NCBI GenBank assembly: GCA_031411675.1 | Contig: JANOBN010000398.1 | Span: 1 to 40,297 of the forward strand | Length of the DNA: 40,297 nucleotides | Direction of reading: 5' to 3' | Origin: Bacteroidota bacterium | Lineage (GTDB): Bacteria; Bacteroidota; Bacteroidia; AKYH767-A; OLB10 | Shown: positions 6,570 to 35,620 of the stretch, in pieces | Numbering within the stretch: position 1 is the first letter of the stretch | Layout of the letters: each line of letters opens with the position of its first letter | Position numbers and translations under genes: made by a program | Notes under the pieces: model-generated | Databases searched by the model: none | Seen by the model: the letters and a program-made list of their open reading frames with translations, nothing else | Told to the model about the DNA's origin: nothing

Positions 6570-7349
6570 TTGTCGAATTTTGAGATAAAACTCCCCCAGT
6601 TTGAAGGTCCTTTTGACCTTTTGCTCTTTTTCATAGAAAGGGATGAACTGGATATTCATGATATTCCAATAGCACGGATTACCGTTGATTTCATGGAATA
6701 TATGCACAGTATGCAGACCATGAATATTGAGTTGGCCAGCGAATGGATACTGGTTGCTGCTACGCTGATGCGCATCAAAGCCAAAATGCTATTACCTCGT
6801 TATGAAAAAGATGAGCAGGGTAATGAGTTAGATCCACGTCATGACTTAATACGCCAGTTACTTGAGTATAAACAGTTTAAGGCTGCATCAGAAGAACTTC
6901 GATTATTGGAGGAAGATCGATTGATGCGTTTTAATCGTGGAAATATGCAGCAGGAGCTATTAAAGATGGCAGGCGATATGGAAACCGGTTATGCCGGCGA
7001 GTTGAATCACCTCACCCTATATAAGCTGATTGCCACATTCGAAAAAGTTATGATGCGTTTTGATGATAATCAGAATCGCGTAATGCATACGGTTGTTCAG
7101 TTTCCTTATAGCATCGACGGACAAAAGGATTACATACGTGCATTAGTGAGTAAGAAGCCCCAGATGAGCTTTGGGGATCTTTTTGAGGAATGTACTACCA
7201 AAATACATGCAGTATTTACTTTTCTGGCTTTACTGGATTTATTACAAAGCCGCATCTTGTTGATCTTTTTAGGGGAGGGCTTTAACAATTTTGTGTTAAG
7301 TACGCCAGAGGCCGCACCGGAGCAACAATCATCGGCCGATGCAGAATGA
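6570..7349 (+). CDS. scpA: segregation and condensation protein A
   Basis: The ScpA N-terminal signature is present (LPQFEGPFDLLLFFIERDELDIHDIPIA). Length is ~259 aa from TTG 6570. The start is uncertain: in-frame ATGs lie at 6405 and 6453, and the listed GTG is at 6375. Confidence 0.8.
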   Translation: MSNFEIKLPQFEGPFDLLLFFIERDELDIHDIPIARITVDFMEYMHSMQTMNIELASEWILVAATLMRIKAKMLLPRYEKDEQGNELDPRHDLIRQLLEYKQFKAASEELRLLEEDRLMRFNRGNMQQELLKMAGDMETGYAGELNHLTLYKLIATFEKVMMRFDDNQNRVMHTVVQFPYSIDGQKDYIRALVSKKPQMSFGDLFEECTTKIHAVFTFLALLDLLQSRILLIFLGEGFNNFVLSTPEAAPEQQSSADAE

Positions 7350-8397: not shown

Positions 8398-8592
8398 TTT
8401 TCGTTTAACATCATTTTGTTTACTGAGAGTGAGGAGGAGATTGGAGAAATCGGCCCGATTATTAATTCAATCAAGAGTTAATTGCGAACAAAACCTTACA
8501 CCATTTTCTGTAATATTTTGTAAAAAAGTGTAACCTTTTTGCTTAAAACAGGTTTAATTGATGAATGAAACTATCTCTATTCGTCAACCATT

Positions 8593-9357
8593 ATGAACCG
8601 CAAATCCTTATTCAGTAACACTTTTATCATCGGGATGTTGCTCTATGGGATGTTGGTTTTAACGTCCTGTAACAGGCAAGCCCTGTTTACGCAAAATAAA
8701 CCGCTGGCACCTAATTCAGGAATTACTTCCGGTAAGCAGGATTCTACCAGACAGCAAAAACTGCTGGCTCCTGATGATAAGATTATGATCAGCATCTGGG
8801 ATCATGATGAGCTGAGCGTTGGCTCCTTACAGGGAACTTATAGTCTTGCAGAAGAGTTTGGCAAATGGATCATGCTGGATGCAAACGGGGAAGTTCGTTT
8901 ACCACAGGTTGGATCAGTAAAGCTGGCAGGATTAAATGTAAAAGACGCCACACAGCAACTGGAAAAAGTATATGCAAAATATATACAGAACCCTGTTATC
9001 AATATCCGAGTATTAAATAATCAGGTAACGGTGCTGGGAGAAGTTCGTAGCCCCGGTATTTATTTGTTTAGTGCTGATCATGTACGTCTGGCTGACATTG
9101 TCGGAAAAGCACAGGGGTTTACTGATTTTGCAAAAACAAAGAAGATTAAAATAATCCGCAATACGGATCAGATGACGATTGACTTTACCAATGCAACGAG
9201 CGCATCAGCACAAGAACTGACGATCTATCCCGGCGATATTATATATATACCACCAACAGGAGGAAAAGCATGGGAACGTTTCAGTACGAAGCTGATTCCT
9301 ATTGCAAGTTTAATAACAGCCATAGCATTAGTTTACAGTGTAACCAATAAAAACTAA
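8593..9357 (+). CDS. wza: polysaccharide export outer-membrane lipoprotein (Wza-like: Poly_export + SLBB)
   Basis: Lipobox VLTSC. Poly_export-type segment ISIWDHDELS...GEVRLPQVGSVKLAGLNVKDATQQLE. SLBB-like segment VTVLGEVRSPGIY. C-terminal hydrophobic helix IPIASLITAIALVY. Confidence 0.8.
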   Translation: MNRKSLFSNTFIIGMLLYGMLVLTSCNRQALFTQNKPLAPNSGITSGKQDSTRQQKLLAPDDKIMISIWDHDELSVGSLQGTYSLAEEFGKWIMLDANGEVRLPQVGSVKLAGLNVKDATQQLEKVYAKYIQNPVINIRVLNNQVTVLGEVRSPGIYLFSADHVRLADIVGKAQGFTDFAKTKKIKIIRNTDQMTIDFTNATSASAQELTIYPGDIIYIPPTGGKAWERFSTKLIPIASLITAIALVYSVTNKN

Positions 9358-9362
9358 GAGAA

Positions 9363-11645
9363 GTGCATAATCCAAATAGTATAAAAAGTTTGCTTTCACC
9401 TCTGGTAAAAAGATGGTATATCATTGCGATATGCCTTTTGTTGTCAGGTATAGCAGCCTATCGTTACATGCAAGTGGCCACACCGGTTTATCAGGCAAGC
9501 GCTACTATAAAAATTGAAGATCAGTCCGGAATAACAGAGACGAAGTTGTTTAAAGATTTTGATGTTTTTAATCAGAATAACAAAACACAAACGGAAGTTG
9601 AAGTACTGAAGTCGAGGTACCTTTTTGAGAAAGCACTGGAGAAACTGGATTTCTTTGTGGAGTACTACCGCATCAATGACATGAGCAATGAAGAGTTGTA
9701 TCATAAAAATCCCTTTACTGTTGACTTTAATTTAACTGCTGAAAATTTCAATCAGCAGGAATTTGATTTTAAACATCTTGGTGGAGAAAGGATACGCATC
9801 ATGTATAATGATGGCAGACGCAACTATGAAAAAGATGCCCGTTTCGGAGAGCGTATTAATGGCAGAGGCTGGAATATTACCGTTAAGAAAGCACCACATT
9901 CTTCCTATTCATTATCGGATTCTTACCGTTTTATCATCTATAGTAAGGTAGCCCTTGCGCAAAAGATGATGAATACCGATTACATTGTTCGTGCAGTAGA
10001 TAAAGATGTAAATATTATAAAAGTATATTACAAACATCCGGTACCGGAAAAAGCAATGAAGATGGTGAATGCCGTTTCACAGGCTTATCTGGAACAAGGG
10101 TTAAATGATAAAAAGGAACTTGCTTCCAGCACACTTGGTTTTATCAATCAACAACTGGAAATTGTAACGCAGGAATTAAACGATGCACAGGATGCCATTA
10201 AAAAATATAAAGTAGATCATGAAATTGTAAATATTCCTCAACAAACCGATGCAACATTCCGTACATTAAGTCAACTGGAAATACAAAAAGTTGATATTAA
10301 CATGCAGCTTTCCATGTTGGAGAATCTGAGTGAATATTTAAGAAGAAACCGTCAGATCAATTTATCAGGACCGGAGTTCACCACTATTGCTGATCCGTTG
10401 TTTACGGAGAGTGTATCAAAACTAAATAACAAGCTGCGGGAACGAATGACCCTAACGGCAAGATATACGGGGGAAGATCCGCACATTATGGGTCTGGATG
10501 CAGAAATTAGTCAGTTGCGCAATTACCTGGTAGAAAGTGTGAACAACACGCGCAAGAAATTAATGATTCGCGAGGAGGAAGTACAAGGTGCGATCGGAGA
10601 ACAAAGAGCATCATTTGATGGCGTTCCGGAAATGGAATCAACATTAAATGAATTGAACCGAAATTTCTTTTTATACGAAAAGGTATATAACTTCCTTATA
10701 GAAAAACGTACGGAAGCTTTAATCACTTCACAGGTGAATGTATCCTTTAACCGAATTCTGGAAGTTGCCACCATGCCTTACAAACCGGTTGCACCTGTTG
10801 CCGAAGTAGTTTGGGGAATTGCTATCTTTTTAGGATTGCTTATTGGTATTACCATTGCTTATGTTCGTCATTATATAAAATCATCGGTATCCAGCAGAGA
10901 GGAAATGGAGAAGGTGAGTCCGATTCCTTTTATTGGCAATGTAGAGCAATTTGTAAAAAGCAGCAACGGATACAATTCCTTTACTGCATTAACCACCAGA
11001 ATTCTTTTAACACAACAATCAAAAGAAAATCTGGTTATAACGGTTACTTCCACAAAAAAGGGAGAAGGTAAAACATTTATTGCTACAGGTGTTGCACGTA
11101 CATTGGCTGCCATGGATAAAAAAGTACTGCTCATTGATATGAATCCATACAACCCGACCTTAAATGAGTGGTTCGATATTCGTAATCCTCAGGGAATGGC
11201 TGATGTGTACATTCATAAGATGAACATACATGATGTAATCAACATTACTTCATTCCCCAATCTTGACATGATAAATTCAGGAACACAGGATGGTCCGATG
11301 AGTCATCTGATTGCCACACAACGCACGCAGGACATCATCAAAGAACTTCGTAACCATTATGATGTAATTGTATTTGATACACCGGAGTCAGGAAAATATG
11401 TAGATGCCATTCCGTTTATGAAATGGAGTGACCTGAATCTGTATGTTGTAAAAGCAGATGAAACCAACAAGGAGCTTATTGCCAATGCGGAGTTAGTAAA
11501 GGAAGAATACCGTCTGGAAGAAGTATATTTTGTACTTAACGGCATGAAGGAAAAACGAAATCATTCAGGCTATATCAATAACAGAAAACTAAACAGTATC
11601 AGGAAAAAAATGGTGCCACAACTCACATCCTTATTTGCCTGGTAA
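9363..11645 (+). CDS. Wzc/GumC-like polysaccharide co-polymerase with C-terminal P-loop (BY-kinase-like) domain
   Basis: It has an N-terminal TM helix, a long coiled-coil periplasmic region and a second TM helix (VVWGIAIFLGLLIGITIAYV). The P-loop is STKKGEGKT (~11044-11080) and the Walker B-like motif is VIVFDTPE. GTG start. No C-terminal Tyr cluster is present. Confidence 0.8.
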   Translation: MHNPNSIKSLLSPLVKRWYIIAICLLLSGIAAYRYMQVATPVYQASATIKIEDQSGITETKLFKDFDVFNQNNKTQTEVEVLKSRYLFEKALEKLDFFVEYYRINDMSNEELYHKNPFTVDFNLTAENFNQQEFDFKHLGGERIRIMYNDGRRNYEKDARFGERINGRGWNITVKKAPHSSYSLSDSYRFIIYSKVALAQKMMNTDYIVRAVDKDVNIIKVYYKHPVPEKAMKMVNAVSQAYLEQGLNDKKELASSTLGFINQQLEIVTQELNDAQDAIKKYKVDHEIVNIPQQTDATFRTLSQLEIQKVDINMQLSMLENLSEYLRRNRQINLSGPEFTTIADPLFTESVSKLNNKLRERMTLTARYTGEDPHIMGLDAEISQLRNYLVESVNNTRKKLMIREEEVQGAIGEQRASFDGVPEMESTLNELNRNFFLYEKVYNFLIEKRTEALITSQVNVSFNRILEVATMPYKPVAPVAEVVWGIAIFLGLLIGITIAYVRHYIKSSVSSREEMEKVSPIPFIGNVEQFVKSSNGYNSFTALTTRILLTQQSKENLVITVTSTKKGEGKTFIATGVARTLAAMDKKVLLIDMNPYNPTLNEWFDIRNPQGMADVYIHKMNIHDVINITSFPNLDMINSGTQDGPMSHLIATQRTQDIIKELRNHYDVIVFDTPESGKYVDAIPFMKWSDLNLYVVKADETNKELIANAELVKEEYRLEEVYFVLNGMKEKRNHSGYINNRKLNSIRKKMVPQLTSLFAW

Positions 11646-11651
11646 AATTAT

Positions 11652-12914
11652 ATGCAACTCACCTTTTCCACTACTAAAAATCTCTTCAAGAACAACACCC
11701 TGCTGGTTTATACTGACCAGTTGGTGGTGAGTGGATTGAGTTTTGTTTCCAGTATTATTCTGGCACGATTACTTGGGGTGCAGGGCTTTGGTATTTATAG
11801 TATTGCATGGTTAGGTGTGCTTATTGCAAGCAGTGTAAATCAACCCTTCATCATTTCTCCGATGATGACCTTAAGCAGCAAAAAGGAATCAGGGGAAAGA
11901 GAACGTTATCTGCAGGCATTGGTTTTTAAGCAACTATTCTTTGCGGCAACCTTAAGTATTCTTGCATTTCTCACAGTGCTGGTGATGAGTGTAATATTGA
12001 AGGAGTGGAAGGTAAACAGTATTATTCTTGCATTTCCTCTTGCTGTTTTTTCATTCCTGTTACAAGACTTTTTCCGCAAATACTTTTTCATTATTGGCAA
12101 AGCACATATGGCGGTTATGATTGATGTAATTGCCTATGGCGGAGTTTTATTAAGTGCGTTTTTGTTGCATTATTTCCGGGATATGGATGCACAGTTTATA
12201 TTGTTGCTTACTGCACTCTTCTTTTTATATGCTTCGCTTGTTGCACTATTGTCGTTAAACAAATTAAAATTTGATCTTAAAGAAATTAAAGCCGCCATCA
12301 CAGAACATTGGGATTTCAGCAAGTGGCTGACGGCAACAGCATTGCTTCAGTGGTTTTCGGGTAACCTGTTTATTATTGCGGCAGGAGCAATACTGGGTCC
12401 GCGCGCTGTTGGTGCCACCCGCATGGCGCAAAATATTGTGGGAATAACCCATGTCTTATTTCTTGCAATGGAAAATATTATTCCGGCGCGAGCTGCTACT
12501 GCTCAACGTAATGGAGGGAATGATGCTCTGTTCCGTTACTTGTGGAAGTTTACATTGCAGATGGGAACGATCACATTTGCATTATTAGGGTTAATAACCA
12601 TCTTCAGCAAACAAATTATTGAAGCCTGCTACGGGGAATCATATCTTGAATATCAGCCGGTACTCATTGGGTTCTGTTTATTATATGTAATTGTGTTTTT
12701 AGGATATCCTTTAAGATACGCAATTCGAACAATGGAAAAAACAAGATTAATATTCTCTTCTTTTATCATCAGTTCCATCTTTAGTGTTGCCTGTGCATAT
12801 CCTGTTATTAATGCATTTGGTTTGTTTGGTGTTGTAGGCGGATTAATGGCTACTCAGATGATCACACTGATCATTTATACATGGTCGTTACGGAATACCA
12901 TTAAGTGGATTTAA
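11652..12914 (+). CDS. wzx: oligosaccharide-unit flippase (Wzx, MOP superfamily)
   Basis: About 12 TM segments and the typical size and position of a Wzx in the locus. The N-terminal LVVSGLSFVSSIILARLLGVQGFG motif is characteristic of polysaccharide biosynthesis flippases. Confidence 0.75.
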   Translation: MQLTFSTTKNLFKNNTLLVYTDQLVVSGLSFVSSIILARLLGVQGFGIYSIAWLGVLIASSVNQPFIISPMMTLSSKKESGERERYLQALVFKQLFFAATLSILAFLTVLVMSVILKEWKVNSIILAFPLAVFSFLLQDFFRKYFFIIGKAHMAVMIDVIAYGGVLLSAFLLHYFRDMDAQFILLLTALFFLYASLVALLSLNKLKFDLKEIKAAITEHWDFSKWLTATALLQWFSGNLFIIAAGAILGPRAVGATRMAQNIVGITHVLFLAMENIIPARAATAQRNGGNDALFRYLWKFTLQMGTITFALLGLITIFSKQIIEACYGESYLEYQPVLIGFCLLYVIVFLGYPLRYAIRTMEKTRLIFSSFIISSIFSVACAYPVINAFGLFGVVGGLMATQMITLIIYTWSLRNTIKWI

Positions 12915-12974
12915 GGTTGCCGTAAAAGCCTTGTAACATCTGCACATTTTCTACGTAAAAACATCAACAAAACC

Positions 12975-14090
12975 ATGAAAGTAATACACCTTGTTTTAGG
13001 AAAAGCCAATCCCAACCGGATGAATGGCGTTAGTAAGGTGGCCCATTTCCACGCCATGTACCTGCATAAAATCGGGGTGAATACAGAGATATGGGGAATA
13101 ACCCGTACTCCGGAAGCTCCGGTTACCGAAAGAGAAGTGCCTACCCGTTTATTTCGCGGGCAGTCAATTATCAGAGGACTGGACCCATCATTAATGTTGG
13201 CTATTGAAAGACTGAAAGGAAAGGTAGTATTTCATATTCATGGTGCATTGATTCCTGACTTCTATCTGGTAACAAAAATACTTTGCGAGAAGAAGATTCC
13301 CTATATATATACTCCGCATGGTGCTTTCAATGAAGTTGCTTTACGGAAAAACAAACTCATTAAGAAAATATATATTAATAGTTTCGAGAAATGGATTCTG
13401 CGCCATGCCAAGAAGGTACAGTTTCTGGGGAAAAGTGAATACGATCATATTACGAATCTGGTAACACTTCACAACAAGGTAGTGATACCAAACGGACAGT
13501 GTCTGGAAGAAATGAGTTTTGAGTATAAAAAAATCAAACATCAGAATGAACCGGTATTCGGCTTTTGCGGACGACTAGATAATTATTATAAAGGACTTGA
13601 CTTATTGCTTACTGCATTTGCTGATTATAAATCAAATGGCGGGAAAGGTGAATTGTGGCTGATTGGTGATGGTCCTGATCGTCAGAAGCTGGAGCAAATG
13701 GTAATTGCACTTGACTTGTCAGCATATGTTACATTTCATGGAGCTCGTTACGGACAGGAAAAACTGAATTTTATTGCGAACTTGGATGTGTTTGTTCATC
13801 CTTCACATTCCGAAGGGTCACCAACAGCTGTTTTGGAAGCTGCGGCATTGAGCATACCGTTGCTTGTTACCACAGGAACGAATGTAGGGCCACTTGTAGA
13901 AAAATATCAATGCGGAATTCATATTCATTCCAATAAAAGTAAAAGTATTGCAACTGCATTAAAAACGTTTGGAGAACTTTATCAGACAGACTCATTAAAA
14001 GAAATGAAAAATGGAGCTTTACGAATGGTAGAAGCGGAGTTTGATTGGGAAAATATTGCAAAACAATTATCGGTAATTTATCAATCATGA
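12975..14090 (+). CDS. GT-B glycosyltransferase (family 4-like)
   Basis: C-terminal E-x7-E region: VFVHPSHSEGSPTAVLEAAALSIPLLVT. Confidence 0.85.
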   Translation: MKVIHLVLGKANPNRMNGVSKVAHFHAMYLHKIGVNTEIWGITRTPEAPVTEREVPTRLFRGQSIIRGLDPSLMLAIERLKGKVVFHIHGALIPDFYLVTKILCEKKIPYIYTPHGAFNEVALRKNKLIKKIYINSFEKWILRHAKKVQFLGKSEYDHITNLVTLHNKVVIPNGQCLEEMSFEYKKIKHQNEPVFGFCGRLDNYYKGLDLLLTAFADYKSNGGKGELWLIGDGPDRQKLEQMVIALDLSAYVTFHGARYGQEKLNFIANLDVFVHPSHSEGSPTAVLEAAALSIPLLVTTGTNVGPLVEKYQCGIHIHSNKSKSIATALKTFGELYQTDSLKEMKNGALRMVEAEFDWENIAKQLSVIYQS

Positions 14091-30636: not shown

Positions 30637-30660
30637 AATTGCCTAGGTTGTTTTTGTAAG

Positions 30661-30966
30661 GCACCGGAATAAATTCCGGTGATATTAATTTCCTCACCTG
30701 TATTGTCATCCAGATCCGCCAGCTGGCGGAGAAGGAACTTTGCTTTGAGCGATGTTGTTCCATAGCAAAATCATTTCGGAGAATGTGGCTGCTAAGATTG
30801 GACATTGCGTCTGCCGTATAGATTCCTCGTACCTCGGAAAGACAAACAATGGGAGAAGGAACTTTGCTTTGAGAAATGTTGTTCTTTACCTAGATCATTC
30901 CGGATAATGTTGCGGCAAAGAGTGAACATTTCGTCAGGCACAGGAATAAATTCAAGCACTATGGAG
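30661..30966 (-). repeat. ~305-bp composite MITE-like repeat (copy B), inverted relative to copy A at 5080-5384
   Basis: The reverse complement aligns module by module with 5080-5384. For example, GGAACAACATCGCTCAAAGCAAAGTTCCTTCTCCGCCAGCTGGCGGATCTGGATGACAATA matches 5278-5338 with 5 mismatches in 61. There is a 7-bp TACGAGG indel. The terminal hairpin 30662-30681 lies 26 nt after the peptidase stop. Confidence 0.85.
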
Positions 30967-31184: not shown

Positions 31185-31760
31185 ATGCCTTCAAATATTT
31201 TGTTTGTCAAGAATATGGTTTGCAATCGCTGTGTGATGGCGGTTGAGGATATTTTGAATAGTGCAGCCATATCATACAGTAAAGTTCTTTTTGGGGAGAT
31301 TCATTTAAAGAATGAATTATCTGATAAGGAAATGGAAATCTTAATCAGCGCGTTGGGAAAAATAGGATTTGAGTTAATTGATAACAGGATGAGCGGTGTT
31401 ATTGAGAAAATCAAGCAGCTTGTAATTAAAAGAGCGAGGAATGAAGTGAAGGATAATGAGAAAAAAACTAAACTTTCCGATTATCTTTCTTCAAATTTGC
31501 ATTATGAGTACACTCATTTAAGCTCTTTATTTTCTTCAGTGGAAGGGCGCACTATTGAGAATTATTTTATTGAACAGCGCATTGAGAAAGCCAAGGAATT
31601 GCTGAAATATGATCAACTGTCTTTAAATGAGATTGCTTTTGAACTCGAATACAGCAGTACAGCACACCTCTCAGCGCAGTTTAAAAAAATTACGGGACTA
31701 ACACCATCTGCTTTTAAAAATATAGGCGCAGAAGCGCGTAAATCGCTCGATAAGGTTTAA
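31185..31760 (+). CDS. AraC/XylS-family transcriptional regulator with N-terminal heavy-metal-associated (HMA) domain
   Basis: The N-terminal ~65 aa look like a beta-alpha-beta-beta-alpha-beta fold carrying the canonical M-x-C-x-x-C motif (MVCNRC, 31214-31231). The C-terminal AraC HTH is LSLNEIAFELEYSSTAHLSAQFKKITGLTPSAFK. Confidence 0.85.
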   Translation: MPSNILFVKNMVCNRCVMAVEDILNSAAISYSKVLFGEIHLKNELSDKEMEILISALGKIGFELIDNRMSGVIEKIKQLVIKRARNEVKDNEKKTKLSDYLSSNLHYEYTHLSSLFSSVEGRTIENYFIEQRIEKAKELLKYDQLSLNEIAFELEYSSTAHLSAQFKKITGLTPSAFKNIGAEARKSLDKV

Positions 31761-31826
31761 CCCAAAGTACTATAAACTTAACCCAAAGTTATATAACGCC
31801 TGCGGCAGGCGTGTGGAATACTTTTG
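31761..31826 (+). promoter_or_regulatory. operator + promoter 1: two CCCAAAGTWWTATAAC direct repeats 21 bp apart, then TACTTTTG -7 box
   Basis: The repeats are cccaaagtactataaac (31761) and cccaaagttatataacg (31782). GTGTGGA follows, then TACTTTTG at 31819-31826. The ATG lies 32 nt downstream at 31859. Confidence 0.7.
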
Positions 31827-32688: not shown

Positions 32689-33303
32689 ATGAAAAACTAT
32701 AAGTATTTAATCACCATTCTTTTTATTTTACATTTTACTATAAGTAATGCTCAATCTGATTCAACGATTTCAGTGAGCAAAAAATACCCGGCACGAAAGC
32801 TGACTATTCAACCGGCAATAGGTTTGCATCCGGCATTCTTCTCTGATGTAGTACTGTCAAATTTGATACAGTGGAAGGTAAATAGGCATTTGAGTTTCGC
32901 TTCACACACATCTTATGACATCAATGATGTTTCTATGCGCAATTTCAATTATATAAAGACGAACTATAACTTCTCGTTCAATCAAAAATTTGGTGTAGGA
33001 ACTACCGTGTATAGGCAACAAACCTCACATTCCTTCTTCCTTATGGGCGGCGTAAAATATGATGCTTTTAAGCAGACACTTAATAATCCGGAATTTGAAA
33101 AAGTAGCTGTTAGCGTTAGCTCACTGAGTCCTGATTACGGAGTTTTTTACAATTTAAAGGCCGGCAAGAAGAAATATTTTTTCAGCTTCAGTATGTACGT
33201 GCCGATTTATCCTTATCCGACAAATGGATTTGACATTAATTCTATACAAGCAAACATGGCTAATTTCTCCTTAGAAATGGGAATAGGCATCAGGCTTAAA
33301 TAA
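32689..33303 (+). CDS. hypothetical secreted protein, probable small outer-membrane beta-barrel
   Basis: Signal peptide (ILFILHFTISNAQ), an alternating hydrophobic pattern and aromatic-rich strands. I recognise no family. It is probably co-transcribed with the esterase. Confidence 0.55.
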   Translation: MKNYKYLITILFILHFTISNAQSDSTISVSKKYPARKLTIQPAIGLHPAFFSDVVLSNLIQWKVNRHLSFASHTSYDINDVSMRNFNYIKTNYNFSFNQKFGVGTTVYRQQTSHSFFLMGGVKYDAFKQTLNNPEFEKVAVSVSSLSPDYGVFYNLKAGKKKYFFSFSMYVPIYPYPTNGFDINSIQANMANFSLEMGIGIRLK

Positions 33304-33324
33304 AGCTGAGTATTTTATGAATTG

Positions 33325-33351
33325 AAACGCTCGGAAACGGGCGTTTTTTTT
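33325..33351 (+). terminator. rho-independent terminator (9-bp stem, GAAA tetraloop, T-run)
   Basis: AAACGCTCG-GAAA-CGGGCGTTT is followed by TTTTT, 22 nt after the stop at 33303. Confidence 0.75.
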
Positions 33352-33391: not shown

Positions 33392-33457
33392 CCCAAAGAA
33401 ATATAATATAATCCCAAAGTAATATAACGCATTTGGAAGGGTGTGGATGTACTTTTG
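33392..33457 (+). promoter_or_regulatory. operator + promoter 2: same direct-repeat architecture
   Basis: The repeats are cccaaagaaatataata (33392) and cccaaagtaatataacg (33413). GTGTGGA follows, then TACTTTTG at 33450-33457. The ATG lies 27 nt downstream at 33485. Confidence 0.7.
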
Positions 33458-33484
33458 TCCTATCAAATTTTAAATAAATATATT

Positions 33485-33649
33485 ATGAAAACAAAATCAG
33501 AATTGGGCCAAAGTGCTCAGAACATCAGCAGAAAAAACTGCAATTGTGAAATATGTACTTGTGAAACCTGTACATGTGGTACTGCTACAAAAAGCGAAGG
33601 CTGTAATTGTGGCGGTTCCTGCAAGTGTGAAGGCACTTGCATGTGTTAA
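33485..33649 (+). CDS. 54-aa cysteine-rich metallothionein-like peptide (six CxC pairs)
   Basis: The sequence is MKTKSELGQSAQNISRKNCNCEICTCETCTCGTATKSEGCNCGGSCKCEGTCMC. All 12 Cys fall in CxC pairs, forming two clusters of three pairs separated by GTATKSEG. The Cys-rich part has no His or aromatic residues. The gene has its own operator/promoter upstream and a strong terminator downstream. The listed GTG 33443 start lies in the promoter. Confidence 0.7.
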   Translation: MKTKSELGQSAQNISRKNCNCEICTCETCTCGTATKSEGCNCGGSCKCEGTCMC

Positions 33650-33651
33650 GT

Positions 33652-33685
33652 AAAAGAGCCGCTCCGAAAGGGGCGGCTCTTTTTT
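33652..33685 (+). terminator. rho-independent terminator (14-bp stem, GAAA tetraloop, T-run)
   Basis: AAAAGAGCCGCTCC-GAAA-GGGGCGGCTCTTTT plus TT begins 3 nt after the stop. Confidence 0.85.
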
Positions 33686-33756
33686 AAATCTATACAATGG
33701 GGAAACAATATTTTCGGTATTTCCCTTCTAAGAAAACAAAAACATATTCAATAAAA

Positions 33757-34167
33757 ATGAATGCAGCACTAATAGGAATTTCAACCGGTTTACTAGTTAT
33801 ACTGGTTATTGCTTTAATTAAGCAAATAGATAAAAAAATAATTTACGGATTGATCCTTACAGGCATCGGGTTTTTGTATGTGGGATTTACCTGGATGGAT
33901 ATTACAGCAATTTCAATAAACATCATGCAGGCAATATTCTTCTTGTTTCTGGCATACTATGGTATTAAAAGTAACCTGTATTTTATGGCAGCCGGTTATT
34001 TTTTGCATGGCATTTGGGACATTGCTTACGATTTATTTGCAAACTCCAGTTTAATCCCTCCTCATTATGATATGTTTTGCTTATCAATAGATTTTACCAT
34101 GGGGTTATATCTGTTGATCATTCAATATCAAACAAACAAGAAGCTTAAACCAGTGACTGCACGCTAG
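33757..34167 (+). CDS. small integral membrane protein (about 4 TM), unknown function
   Basis: From ATG 33757 (MNAALIGISTGLLVILVIAL...) there are four hydrophobic segments. A conserved-looking YFLHGIWDIAYD / PPHYD His-containing stretch is present. The listed start 33697 adds a basic, non-membrane extension. Confidence 0.55.
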   Translation: MNAALIGISTGLLVILVIALIKQIDKKIIYGLILTGIGFLYVGFTWMDITAISINIMQAIFFLFLAYYGIKSNLYFMAAGYFLHGIWDIAYDLFANSSLIPPHYDMFCLSIDFTMGLYLLIIQYQTNKKLKPVTAR

Positions 34168-34199: not shown

Positions 34200-34264
34200 C
34201 CCAATAAAGTATAATCGATTCCCAAAGTATTATAACACGTAAAATAACAGGTAATCTACTTTTG
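34200..34264 (+). promoter_or_regulatory. operator + promoter 3: same direct-repeat architecture
   Basis: The repeats are cccaataaagtataatc (34200, degenerate) and cccaaagtattataaca (34221). TACTTTTG is at 34257-34264. The ATG lies 30 nt downstream at 34295. Confidence 0.65.
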
Positions 34265-34294
34265 TCCCACTCTAAAAAATCAAAAACATAAAAA

Positions 34295-35620
34295 ATGAAA
34301 ACCACATCTAAAATCGTAACTTACAATCTTGAAGCAAGCGCATTTCAATGGGAGATTTCTCCCGGAAAAACCATTGAAGCATGGGGCTTTAATAAACAAA
34401 TTCCGGCTCCGGTTTTAAGAGCACAGGCAGGCGATACACTGGTTGTTCGACTGACTAATAATCTACCTGAAGCAACCATGATACATTGGCATGGAATTCG
34501 TATTCCGGCGGCAATGGATGGTACTTCGGCAGTACAAAAGCCAATTATGCCCGGTGAAGTATTTGAATATCGTTTTGAAGTGCCTGATGCCGGAACATTC
34601 TGGTTTCATTCGCATGCCAACGAAACTATCCAGATGGAAAGAGGAATGTATGGTGCTTTAATTGTTGAAGATGATACCAATCTTGTTACTGATGGAGAAA
34701 GGATATTCATGATTGATGACATGAAGCTGAATGAAAACAATGAGTTTACAAAACCAACCTGGTTTCTGCCACGCGCTATTGAAAGACATGATGGACGCCA
34801 GGGTAATACGCTATTGTTAAACGGGAAAGAAGATTTAGCAATCAATGTGAACGGCGGACAGACAGAAAGATGGCGTTTTATCAACTCGTCCAGTGCACGA
34901 TATTTTGTTTTATACCTTGGTGGTAAGTCATTTAAAACTATTGCATCAGATGGTGGCCTTTTGGAGCATCCTCTAACAGTTACCGAAGCTTTAATAACTC
35001 CCGGAGAACGAATCGACATAGCAATTGATTTTACAGAAGGTGAAACATTTGCAATTGAATCATTGGCTTACGACAGAATGACTTTCTTAAAAGCAAAGCG
35101 GGAGACATTTGCAACTGTAAAGGTGGGAGAGAGTAAACCGTCAAAGGCATACATACCTGAAAGACTAAGAACGATTGAGCCGCTTGCCTCACAGGATGCT
35201 GCCATCACCAGAAAAGTAAAGTTGTCAGTTGACCCAAGAATAAGAGATCAAAAGGACTTTAAAATAAATGATAGCACACATGTAAACGACAAGCCGGTGA
35301 TGGTTGGCGAGCTGCAAATATGGGAAGTGTCGAATACAAGCAGAATGGATCATCCGTTTCATCTTCACGGTTTTTTCTTTCAGGTGATTGAAGAGAATGG
35401 TAAAGCACCGGAATACATGGCATGGAAAGATACCGTTAACTTAAAACCAAAAAGCACCATAAAGATTGCATGGATGCCTGATAACCGCCCGGGCATGTGG
35501 ATGTATCATTGTCATATCATTGAACATCATGCAGCAGGGATGATGGCAAACTTTGAAGTGATTGATGGAAGCCGGCCATATCTTAAGACCGTTGCACATC
35601 CGGAAAATCATTGCAATTAA
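34295..35620 (+). CDS. multicopper oxidase (three-cupredoxin laccase/CueO-like), no evident signal peptide
   Basis: All four copper-ligand motifs are present: HWHGIR, FWFHSHA, HPFHLHG and MYHCHIIEHHAAGMM. The N-terminus MKTTSKIVTYNLEAS runs straight into cupredoxin domain 1. Confidence 0.9.
   Translation: MKTTSKIVTYNLEASAFQWEISPGKTIEAWGFNKQIPAPVLRAQAGDTLVVRLTNNLPEATMIHWHGIRIPAAMDGTSAVQKPIMPGEVFEYRFEVPDAGTFWFHSHANETIQMERGMYGALIVEDDTNLVTDGERIFMIDDMKLNENNEFTKPTWFLPRAIERHDGRQGNTLLLNGKEDLAINVNGGQTERWRFINSSSARYFVLYLGGKSFKTIASDGGLLEHPLTVTEALITPGERIDIAIDFTEGETFAIESLAYDRMTFLKAKRETFATVKVGESKPSKAYIPERLRTIEPLASQDAAITRKVKLSVDPRIRDQKDFKINDSTHVNDKPVMVGELQIWEVSNTSRMDHPFHLHGFFFQVIEENGKAPEYMAWKDTVNLKPKSTIKIAWMPDNRPGMWMYHCHIIEHHAAGMMANFEVIDGSRPYLKTVAHPENHCN

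Follow-up and report, generated by a model that had tools for sequence, protein, structure and literature searches.

Introduction

Only a few bacterial metallothioneins are known experimentally, namely SmtA/BmtA, MymT and a handful more, and such proteins are thought to be rare. MymT, a mycobacterial cytosolic, copper-inducible and cysteine-rich peptide of ~53 amino acids, was long missed by annotation; it contains histidine, and its regulator is the repressor RicR instead of an AraC-type activator. On the side of regulation, CueR- and CopY-like regulators without metal sites have been reported in the flavobacterium Bizionia argentinensis (PMC11213822). The literature searched contained nothing relevant on the sequence motifs discussed below, on HMA-AraC regulators or on metallothioneins of the Bacteroidota, and no description of an HMA-AraC metal sensor.

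Here we analyse a peptide gene on a stretch of 40,297 nucleotides from a Bacteroidota bacterium (the window), which the first-pass annotation, made from sequence alone, had proposed to encode a possible new metallothionein of this phylum. The proposal is supported computationally. We read the peptide as a cytosolic metallothionein inducible by a soft metal, probably Cu(I), and as the signature target of an HMA-AraC sensor, and assign this reading a probability of roughly 0.62. That the gene is translated and its product binds metal, and which metal this would be, is inferred and not shown.

A CxC-rich peptide gene and its regulatory elements

The coding sequence (33485..33649, forward strand) begins with an ATG at 33485, ends with a TAA closing at 33649 and specifies 54 amino acids, 12 of which are cysteine; its translation is MKTKSELGQSAQNISRKNCNCEICTCETCTCGTATKSEGCNCGGSCKCEGTCMC. 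The N-terminus is hydrophilic and lacks a signal peptide, and the core CNCEICTCETCTC is followed by a linker and then by CNCGGSCKCEGTCMC. All 12 cysteines, 22% of the residues, are taken up in six CxC pairs, three on either side of the 8-residue linker GTATKSEG, and the entire peptide lacks His, Phe, Tyr and Trp. This layout had been described in the first-pass annotation and held in full, as did the lack of a signal peptide and the absence of His and aromatic residues, which had been claimed for the Cys-rich part and applies to the whole window peptide.

Chance is ruled out as the origin of this reading frame by segment ranking and by shuffling. With six CxC motifs, the peptide leads the 618 stop-to-stop segments of at least 30 amino acids in the window (the runner-up has three), and the top CxC count of any ORF in block shuffles (n=100) averages 1.8 with a maximum of 4. 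The AF2 model of the metal-free peptide has a pLDDT of 53 and no autonomous fold, a prediction that is compatible with an apo-thionein but is neither specific nor diagnostic.

The operator of the peptide gene (33392..33427, forward strand) is composed of two direct half-sites, CCCAAAGAAATATAA (33392-33406) and CCCAAAGTAATATAA (33413-33427), spaced 21 nt start to start. The -7 promoter element TACTTTTG (33450..33457, forward strand) lies 27 nt upstream of the ATG and is of the Bacteroidota type TAnnTTTG, the consensus of Bacteroidota sigma-A promoters. The operator overlaps the -33 region and is inferred, without binding data, to be the site of the HMA-AraC activator. Two further pairs of operator and -7 box occur on the forward strand, one before an esterase/OMP gene pair (31761..31826; operator 31761-31796, -7 box 31819-31826) and one preceding a multicopper oxidase gene (34200..34264; operator 34200-34235, -7 box 34257-34264), and TACTTTTG stands about 22 nt beyond each of the three operators. 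Their consensus is CCCAAAnnnnTRTAA twice, 21 nt apart; half-sites at <=1 mismatch number six in the 40-kb window, and these make up the three operators. In more than 20 related loci, the operator pair and the -7 box constitute a fixed frame of 65-66 nt located 22-32 nt before the ATG.

Downstream, an intrinsic terminator (33652..33685, forward strand) begins 3 nt past the stop codon and comprises a perfect 14-bp stem (33652-33665/33670-33683), a GAAA loop and T6, with a dG of -25.4 kcal/mol and a z of -5.7. Terminator hairpins are found 3' of the peptide gene in related loci too, and the peptide mRNA folds unusually well (z -6.6). The 33652..33685 hairpin was not listed by a simple terminator scan. 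Conservation of the operator/promoter/terminator architecture is shown. The claims that the gene has its own copy of a shared operator/promoter and a very strong terminator, and that it is a discrete regulated unit instead of a chance ORF, were upheld.

Conservation and protein-level selection

The core CxCExCxCExCxC is kept in 19 distinct relatives (19 or more distinct relatives in all). In the 19 distinct sequences, six of six core cysteines are invariant, with codons divided between TGC and TGT at 63/51; the third codon position varies in 12 of the 13 core codons, positions 1 and 2 in three and five respectively, and the core pN/pS is ~0.1. Because third positions vary while the amino acids stay invariant, selection acts on the protein, and the ORF is a real protein-coding gene under protein-level selection, translation itself being inferred. 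It should be borne in mind that the search pattern C[NT]CE[IV]C[TI]C was what brought up loci L004-L018, so that the invariance of the core is partly circular there. Loss of the ORF or of its Cys positions in relatives had been named at the outset as grounds for refutation; both are conserved, and all of the computational refutation tests named in the first-pass annotation came out in its favour.

Across 42 members, the family ranges from 35 to 59 aa, bar one miscalled outlier of 89 aa, and its Cys content ranges from 15 to 29% with no CC pairs. The core spacing is CxCxxCxCxxCxC, and the Cys region is free of aromatics and His in 33 of the 42. The number of CxC pentads varies from 2 to 6, with tandem duplications of the module in P0137 and P0139, and the N-terminal segment is kept in composition, not in sequence. 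One of the carriers is the Flavobacterium sp. of GCA_053551195.1, with peptide P0135.

The HMA-AraC regulator

The regulator (31185..31760, forward strand) consists of a CopZ-like HMA domain, carrying C13-x-x-C16, fused to an AraC/MarA-type double-HTH domain. The C-terminus is recognised by Pfam (HTH_18 E 3.4e-18, HTH_AraC E 8e-10; double HTH, PF12833/PF00165), and Foldseek matches it to the DNA-binding domains of AraT, MarA, SoxS and AraC. The Pfam HMA model (PF00403) gives no match to the regulator at E<=1, and the N-terminal profile finds Cu-ATPase HMA domains at E 4e-4 to 0.02, the best matches of the sensor domain being, with few exceptions, Cu(I)-ATPase domains or CopZ. The AF2 model of the regulator (pLDDT 86) has a beta-alpha-beta-beta-alpha-beta N-domain (E5-9 H14-26 E31-35 E38-41 H47-59 E63-65), for which Foldseek returns CopZ, Atx1 and GolB at TM 0.61-0.67. 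The HMA fold of the N-domain is shown, on the basis of the AF2 model and Foldseek, and metal binding by it is inferred. No PDB chain in the Foldseek list covers both regulator domains together. Among regulators the N-M-V-C-x-R-C motif is invariant, and the CxxC and the GEIH motif are invariant or nearly so.

At least 7,887 homologues of the regulator are found at E<=1e-20. In seven of seven sampled ones, picked only for long contigs, an uncalled Cys-rich small ORF is adjacent, with the conserved tandem operator and -7 box 5' and an intrinsic terminator 3' of it. In a set ascertained through the peptide, the regulator lies immediately upstream of the peptide gene in 12 loci, and in L019, L023 and L031 it is itself located downstream. 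The linkage of the peptide gene to the regulator is shown. No Cys peptide is encoded close to the distant regulator homologues on Cytophagia plasmids, at 37-48% identity, so the pairing is clade-specific, not regulator-family-wide; on plasmids of cultured Cytophagia, these distant homologues adjoin a multicopper oxidase, or a P-type ATPase together with a cupredoxin and DUF305.

Genomic neighbours

Between the regulator and the peptide gene lie genes for a lipoprotein-type esterase (PF00756; 31859..32647, forward strand), with a likely start at ATG 31859, not GTG 31811, and for a 204-aa signal-peptide protein without family match, a putative OMP (32689..33303, forward strand), both syntenic in L001 and L021. 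A terminator at 33324-33347 stands behind the latter. Directly behind the peptide terminator, and without an operator of its own, is the gene for a DUF6010 membrane protein (33697..34167, forward strand; start probably 33757), which is linked to the module also in L001 and L026. Preceded by the third operator, a gene for a three-domain, CueO-like multicopper oxidase without signal peptide follows (34295..35620, forward strand). From the shared operator, the esterase and the multicopper oxidase are inferred to be co-regulated members of the regulon. In L001 and L021 the esterase-OMP-MCO genes are found behind the peptide terminator without an operator of their own.

The expected synteny with the HMA-AraC gene proved to be tight, and that with the multicopper oxidase held only in part, being confined to a sub-lineage (window, L001, L021). 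Most loci have no copper genes within +/-8 kb of the module. P0139, the two-module relative, belongs to a SCO1/HMA/P-type ATPase/CopZ/DUF5134 cluster in a 63% GC genome. In L024 the module adjoins an RND efflux system with faint CusB/CzcB-type matches, with rplT on the minus strand downstream, and in L031 it adjoins a catalase gene.

A family largely missing from protein databases

A word-indexed protein search with the peptide alone gave no match, exhaustive phmmer against 1.84 billion representatives gave a single one, P0001, and an exact look-up of the window peptide and nine relatives found none on record. Because DNA-level scans yielded 18 loci with the peptide gene, the outcomes of the word-indexed and phmmer searches reflect non-annotation, not absence. 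Only about 19 family members are called as proteins among 5.8 billion clusters, all of them as 'hypothetical protein' or unnamed, and at one or more loci a spurious opposite-strand gene is called in place of the peptide ORF. The first-pass annotation had remarked that bacterial metallothioneins are rare and easily missed by annotation pipelines because of their size; the present family is apparently common but uncalled.

The peptides scanned, the window peptide and relatives, could be placed in no Pfam or NCBIfam family, and a PDB profile search gave nothing at E<=10. The gathering score of the eukaryotic metallothionein families in Pfam (Metallothio, Metallothio_2, _PEC, _Euk, Yeast_MT and others) was never reached; below threshold, the members match no Pfam families other than metallothionein ones (PEC E 0.0049 in one member, Metallothio_2 E 0.11, Metallothio_Euk E 0.74), and the window peptide has no such match. 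Rfam, searched at gathering thresholds and permissive E-values, returned terminator-driven noise only and no family at threshold.

Proposed function and rival explanations

A new family of bacterial metallothioneins is most likely because a conserved Cys-rich gene stands under a promoter that is inferred to be governed by a copper-chaperone-like AraC regulator. There is no detectable homology to characterised metallothioneins, so that the peptide is assigned from its composition and its surroundings. The Kagi/Binz definition of the metallothionein superfamily is met with regard to size (under about 10 kDa), high Cys in CxC/CxxC arrangements, and few or no aromatic or His residues (none in the window peptide, and none in 33/42 Cys regions). 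Metal-thiolate clusters and metal-responsive expression, two further parts of the definition, are inferred, the latter from the conserved operator beside a gene for an HMA-domain regulator.

In the mechanism we propose, the regulator would take up a soft metal, most probably Cu(I), at C13-x-x-C16 of its CopZ-like domain. Two AraC-type domains would then fill the direct half-sites CCCAAAnnnnTRTAA, 21 nt apart and abutting the -33 region, and switch on the TAnnTTTG promoter as class-II activators, in the manner of AraC, MarA and SoxS. The resulting short monocistronic mRNA, ended by the strong terminator, would yield a peptide of CxCxx pentads whose thiolates wrap the metal in thiolate clusters and so buffer it in the cytosol; each invariant six-Cys block would suit either a single [Cu4(S-Cys)6] cluster or an M(II)2Cys6 centre with two metal ions. 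The co-regulated multicopper oxidase, esterase/OMP and DUF6010 proteins would handle the metal elsewhere. Binding of the regulator to the operator, its role as an activator, metal binding by the peptide and the choice of metal are all inferred.

The rival that deserves most attention retains this architecture and changes the metal: the pair could be a sensor and thionein for Zn/Cd (or Hg, Ag, Au), with M(II) thiolate centres in each six-Cys block. HMA CxxC sites bind Zn, Cd, Hg, Ag and Au too, and Zn/Cd thioneins contain CxC motifs as well; the ZntA HMA domain and the gold chaperone GolB are among the sequence and structure matches of the sensor, the L024 module sits beside the RND efflux system with its faint CusB/CzcB-type matches, and a copper-specific neighbour is absent in most loci. 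Against this stand the best matches of the sensor domain, which with few exceptions are to Cu(I)-ATPase domains or CopZ, the multicopper oxidase, which belongs to the regulon in the window and in L001 and L021 clusters with the module, a relative inside a Cu-ATPase/SCO1 cluster, and the absence of the His ligands typical of bacterial Zn thioneins. A non-copper metal remains conceivable. It is less plausible that the peptide is a partner instead of mainly a sink, either as a high-affinity buffer that resets the activator by taking the metal out of its HMA domain, in negative feedback, or as a Cu(I) chaperone to the oxidase. In favour, the pairing of regulator and peptide is almost obligatory even without other metal genes near, and the multicopper oxidase would share the peptide's compartment because it has no export signal; but the oxidase is present in a minority of loci only, and the 2-6 CxC pentads and the tandem duplications in P0137 and P0139 resemble the capacity tuning typical of a sink more than a specific interface between proteins.

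The remaining alternatives carry little weight. Copper-related RiPPs (methanobactins, bufferins) come from Cys-rich precursors, and the Cys/Thr/Ser-rich core behind a Cys-free N-terminal segment could suggest a RiPP precursor (of a thioether, thiooxazole or other Cys-derived metallophore) with the hydrophilic N-terminal 18 residues as leader. Yet no maturase (LanB/C/M, radical SAM, MNIO/DUF692, YcaO) or exporter lies near the gene in about 20 loci with called genes, the regulator is the sole constant neighbour, the N-terminal segment is conserved in composition and not in sequence, and no precursor family in NCBIfam or Pfam is matched, all of which makes this origin highly improbable. No more credible is a functional RNA or regulatory leader encoding a functionless peptide, its Cys codons sensing cysteine/tRNA-Cys or its terminator controlling read-through. 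The terminator does lie 3 nt past the stop, genes without their own operator do follow (DUF6010 in the window, esterase-OMP-MCO in L001 and L021), and the mRNA fold is unusually stable (z -6.6); but invariant amino acids with variable third positions denote protein-level selection, what lies downstream is in most loci unrelated or encoded on the other strand (rplT in L024; the regulator in L019, L023 and L031), no antiterminator pairing is apparent, and no Rfam family reaches threshold. A thiol redox or electrophile buffer, that is, a sacrificial Cys-rich scavenger and not a metal binder, could be argued from the catalase gene beside the module in L031, and metallothioneins of other organisms also scavenge oxidants (PMC11237414). 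The metal-binding-type HMA fold with CxxC in the sensor, and co-regulated and neighbouring genes that are metal genes, not redox genes, leave this reading with very poor support.

Significance

The peptide family is apparently common yet invisible, given the at least 7,887 regulator homologues (E<=1e-20) and a peptide gene in 7/7 sampled. If the metallothionein reading is true, it adds a new metallothionein family, a new kind of metal sensor (CopZ-like domain plus AraC DNA-binding domain) together with its operator, and a testable model for cytosolic copper handling in Bacteroidota. It could also furnish compact parts for biosensing and bioremediation, in the form of a 66-nt inducible promoter and a 40-54-aa chelator. 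In a bolder reading, which we consider slightly more likely to fail than to hold, the regulator and the CxC-pentad peptide would be the main module by which much of the Bacteroidota (Chitinophagia, Saprospiria, some Flavobacteriia) senses and buffers Cu(I) in the cytosol, with thousands of genes nearly absent from protein databases, a new metallothionein family with high-GC relatives, and the first AraC-type copper sensor.

Comparison with known systems

With SmtA/BmtA and SmtB, the present pair has in common that a bacterial thionein goes with a dedicated metal sensor, both roles being inferred here, and the core shares its CxCxxCxC spacing with the N-terminal K-C-A-C-E-P-C-L-C of SmtA (cf. 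P0001, KCNCETCLC). Membership of the SmtA/BmtA family (MT family 14, PF02069 Metallothio_Pro) was rejected, there being no match at E<=10 in 24 members or the window peptide, and hhalign against SmtA gave a probability of 5% over only 11 columns. As the first-pass annotation had held in setting it apart from their Cys-plus-His, zinc-finger-like pattern, the peptide has no Cys9His2-type ligands, aromatics or zinc-finger-like fold, and no folded core is predicted for it; SmtA is a Zn protein under an ArsR-type repressor. The spacing C-x4-C-x-C ... C-x-C ... C-x-C is common to MymT and many family members. MymT is similar also in its size, its richness in Cys and its having been overlooked by annotation. 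Homology to MymT found no support, at an hhalign probability of 1%.

Csp3-type cytosolic copper storage proteins, methanobactin and bufferin are further bacterial means of Cys-based Cu(I) handling. Csp proteins, unlike this peptide, exceed 100 aa and form four-helix bundles, and RiPP metallophores depend on export signals and on maturases such as MNIO, none of which accompany the peptide gene.

The likeness to fungal Cu(I)-thioneins suggested by the first-pass annotation held in part, extending to composition and Cys spacing only and not to detectable homology: hhalign against Cup1 gave a probability of 1%. Like Neurospora crassa MT and S. cerevisiae Cup1/Crs5, the peptide is small, Cys-rich, CxC-dominated and free of His and aromatics, and its Cys blocks would suit polynuclear Cu(I)-thiolate clusters, although its binding of metal is not shown. 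As with fungal thioneins and Ace1, the gene is paired with a dedicated metal-binding activator, a role inferred for the present regulator; unlike them, the host is bacterial and an HMA-AraC fusion takes the place of the copper-fist activator. In fold, and in having CxxC where beta1 meets alpha1, the N-domain of this fusion is like CopZ/Atx1. Its C-domain superposes on the DNA-binding domains of MarA, SoxS and AraC, and the direct-repeat half-sites, 21 nt apart and abutting the promoter, resemble AraC I1-I2.

A conserved cysteine-rich peptide

The peptide gene runs from an ATG at 33485 to a TAA ending at 33649 on the forward strand, and its product, MKTKSELGQSAQNISRKNCNCEICTCETCTCGTATKSEGCNCGGSCKCEGTCMC, holds all 12 cysteines in six CxC pairs, set as two groups of three with GTATKSEG between them; His, Phe, Tyr and Trp are absent and the N-terminus is not hydrophobic. 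The first-pass annotation had described exactly this arrangement of cysteines, 8-residue linker and missing residues. Of the window's 618 stop-to-stop segments of 30 aa or longer, only this ORF has a CxC count above 3, and the best count in any ORF after block shuffling averaged 1.8 per shuffle and was never above 4 (100 shuffles). AF2 gave the peptide no autonomous fold (pLDDT 53). The full mRNA (33458-33692) folds far more stably than its shuffles (-79.9 kcal/mol, z -6.6), probably a side effect of TGT-ACA-TGT (Cys-Thr-Cys) palindromes, and the folding might influence translation or stability.

DNA-level scans revealed relatives in three assemblies (one MAG each from Saprospiraceae, Bacteroidetes and Flavisolibacter, the first encoding two paralogues) and on 15 additional metagenome contigs. 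A 13-codon core, CxCExCxCExCxC, retains its six cysteines and both glutamates in 19 of 19 distinct sequences, so that the conservation proposed as a check on the original reading is borne out. Across these sequences, the core cysteine codons are TGC and TGT in a ratio of 63/51, 12 of the 13 codons vary at the third position as against 3 at the first and 5 at the second, and pN/pS is about 0.1; length differences within the family are in frame without exception. Together, these features are the mark of selection at the protein level, as opposed to an RNA element or a chance ORF. It should be noted that the pattern C[NT]CE[IV]C[TI]C served to retrieve loci L004-L018, and the invariance of codons 1-8 in them is hence partly circular. 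This affects neither core codons 9-13 nor the synonymous variation, and loci L021 and L024 are independent of the pattern.

The family peptides are arrays of CxCxx pentads. Type A, that of the window, has the core CxCE[IV]-CxCEx-CxCG, frequently with CGNPN ahead of it and 0-3 more CxC pairs behind, while the 40-aa type B, C-x-NPN-CTCxxCNCGxxCTCxxC, equals type A less one pentad; the relatives P0137 and P0139 are tandem two-module members. Over 42 members, cysteine makes up 15-29% of residues, CC pairs are absent and aromatic residues and His are rare. By analogy, a varying repeat number is a usual trait of metal sinks, and the invariant six-Cys block could accommodate either a [Cu4(S-Cys)6] cluster or a centre of the M(II)2Cys6 type, an inference made without metal-binding data.

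A regulator partner and its presumed operator

Pfam recognises only AraC helix-turn-helix domains in the regulator (31185-31760, forward strand). A profile of its N-terminal 78 residues, however, matches Cu-ATPase HMA domains (E 4e-4 to 0.02), CopZ and ZntA. In the AF2 model (pLDDT 86), a beta-alpha-beta-beta-alpha-beta domain is predicted ahead of the seven helices of an AraC domain, and the invariant C13-x-x-C16 lies where beta1 meets alpha1. Foldseek pairs the N-terminal half with CopZ, Atx1, tetranuclear-Cu(I) CopZ and GolB, and the C-terminal half with the DNA-binding domains of AraT, MarA, SoxS and AraC. Since profile, model and structural search agree on an N-terminal HMA domain, the label HMA-AraC given at first reading is correct.

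At least 7,887 regulator homologues were found at E<=1e-20, the majority about 70% identical. In seven sampled solely for long contigs (L019, L021, L022, L023, L025, L026 and L027), a small Cys-rich ORF immediately adjoins the regulator in all seven, and gene callers missed it every time; in L025 they instead reported a spurious 39-aa gene (8711-8830) antisense to the real ORF (8667-8789). A phmmer search of 1.84 billion representatives returned a single match, P0001 (an NCBI 'hypothetical protein'), whose gene lies directly 3' of an HMA-AraC-type regulator gene, as does that of P0135 from a Flavobacterium sp. assembly. As the regulator is also immediately upstream in 12 loci found via the peptide, it is the peptide's constant partner. 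The predicted synteny thus holds for the regulator; the set of esterase, putative outer-membrane protein (OMP; 32689-33303), multicopper oxidase (MCO) and DUF6010 genes is confined, as a companion of the pair, to the window, L001 (the Saprospiraceae MAG) and L021.

More than 20 peptide loci share an upstream frame of two direct CCCAAAnnnnTRTAA half-sites 21 nt apart, then, about 22 nt beyond, TAnnTTTG, the Bacteroidota -7 element, and an ATG 22-32 nt further 3', the leader being A/T-rich without a Shine-Dalgarno sequence. In these loci the stop codon is followed by a hairpin terminator, which in the window (33652-33685) has a perfect 14-bp stem, GAAA loop and T6 (dG -25.4 kcal/mol, z -5.7); the claim that the gene has its own operator/promoter copy and a very strong terminator therefore stands. 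The window contains six half-sites, as three pairs and none elsewhere, at 31761 before the esterase/OMP genes, at 33392 before the peptide gene and at 34200 before the MCO. As the proximal half-site abuts the expected -33 position and the repeats are direct at 21 nt, the geometry would fit class-II activation, by analogy with the known behaviour of AraC, MarA and SoxS and without binding data. In L001 and L021 the sole operator is at the peptide gene. There, the esterase, OMP and MCO genes follow its terminator at short gaps without an operator of their own, which suggests that the terminator could be leaky and set a high peptide-to-enzyme ratio.

Several further observations concern the neighbourhood. 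The DUF6010 gene (33697-34167) has no operator in the window; its probable true start is ATG 33757, aligning with MNATIVG of the L001 orthologue, and over its leader (33727-33757) it shares 81% identity with the 5'UTR of the MCO gene (34271-34301). The link between DUF6010 and the module recurs in L001 and L026. Of the L001 paralogues, that at 8433-8603 is preceded by the operator, and that at 10001-10180 has no recognisable one and sits behind a DJ-1/PfpI-AraC (GlxA-like) regulator gene, a gene that in L022 and L026 comes after the peptide. L026 also has, two genes ahead of its regulator, a 98-aa protein (6881-7177) with a hydrophobic N-terminal segment and the C-terminal end CSDTGCGCQNCKCVGSCTCGDL, possibly a membrane-anchored or secreted carrier of a related CxC module. 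The 550-nt gap 5' of the window's regulator holds a pair of 84-nt direct repeats with 82% identity (30728-30811 and 30852-30935) and, within 30640-30960, 25-nt hairpin-containing repeats at 30652 and 30929; these are either a repeat element without explanation or degenerate fragments of genes.

Metal preference and alternative explanations

Copper is the likely metal, a specificity inferred from sequence and context. It is favoured because most matches of the sensor domain are to Cu(I) proteins, a CueO-like MCO with all four copper-site motifs (34295-35620, forward strand) lies behind the same operator as the peptide, and the genes ahead of P0139 (54 aa, 14 Cys; L029/L030, 6001-6165) encode SCO1/SenC, HMA, P-type ATPase, CopZ-like and DUF5134 proteins. 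Plasmids of cultured Cytophagia (L032, Spirosoma linguale pSLIN02; L034, Hymenobacter monticola) carry distant regulator homologues (37-41% identity) that point the same way, lying within copper or heavy-metal clusters with either a 'bilirubin oxidase' multicopper oxidase or a P-type ATPase, cupredoxin and DUF305 (also DUF4396) as neighbours; no Cys peptide is near these two. P0139 belongs to a 62.8% GC genome, and the CxNPxCTCxxCxCG module therefore extends beyond Bacteroidota.

The window MCO (N-terminus MKTTSKIVTYNLEAS...) has no export signal of the Sec, Tat or T9SS kind and cannot be extended at its N-terminus because a stop codon lies upstream; its L001 orthologue (11781-13115) is likewise signal-less. 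An apparently cytoplasmic MCO co-regulated with a cytosolic thionein, as inferred here from sequence alone, would be unusual.

A thionein for another metal remains plausible, since the copper evidence does not exclude Zn, Cd, Hg or Ag. A role in feedback or as a chaperone is also conceivable and would fit the tight pairing of peptide and regulator. Other readings fare poorly: a RiPP precursor is very unlikely with no maturase or exporter near the gene in any locus examined, a leader peptide or sRNA is contradicted by the core codon pattern and by downstream genes that are unrelated or on the opposite strand, and a redox buffer is hard to reconcile with the metal-binding fold of the sensor. On balance, we lean towards a new, widespread and nearly entirely unannotated metallothionein-like family (probability about 0.6 as metallothionein), its function, metal specificity and translation being inferred. 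The original observation is confirmed, and its metallothionein interpretation supported to the limit of sequence analysis.

Relation to known metal-binding systems

No member significantly matches a Pfam or NCBIfam model, and the sub-threshold matches are exclusively to metallothionein families; a profile built from the family had no PDB match at E<=10. In pairwise comparison, hhalign gave a probability of 5% for SmtA, over an 11-column CxCExCxC match, and 1% each for MymT and Cup1. The stated difference from the SmtA/BmtA pattern hence holds, but the proposed resemblance to fungal copper thioneins gains no homology support from Cup1. Within the Pfam, NCBIfam and PDB searches the peptide lies outside every described family; two metagenomic metallothionein-mining sets were not compared by sequence. 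The literature searched contained nothing on the peptide motifs, HMA-AraC sensors or Bacteroidota metallothioneins. A study of copper homeostasis reports that the CueR- and CopY-like regulators of the flavobacterium Bizionia argentinensis are missing their metal sites (PMC11213822). With metal-thiolate clusters, the decisive criterion, still a matter of inference, the peptide fulfils the compositional definition of a metallothionein, and its coupling to an HMA-AraC sensor with a defined operator, deduced from sequence alone without binding data, would be an arrangement not described before.
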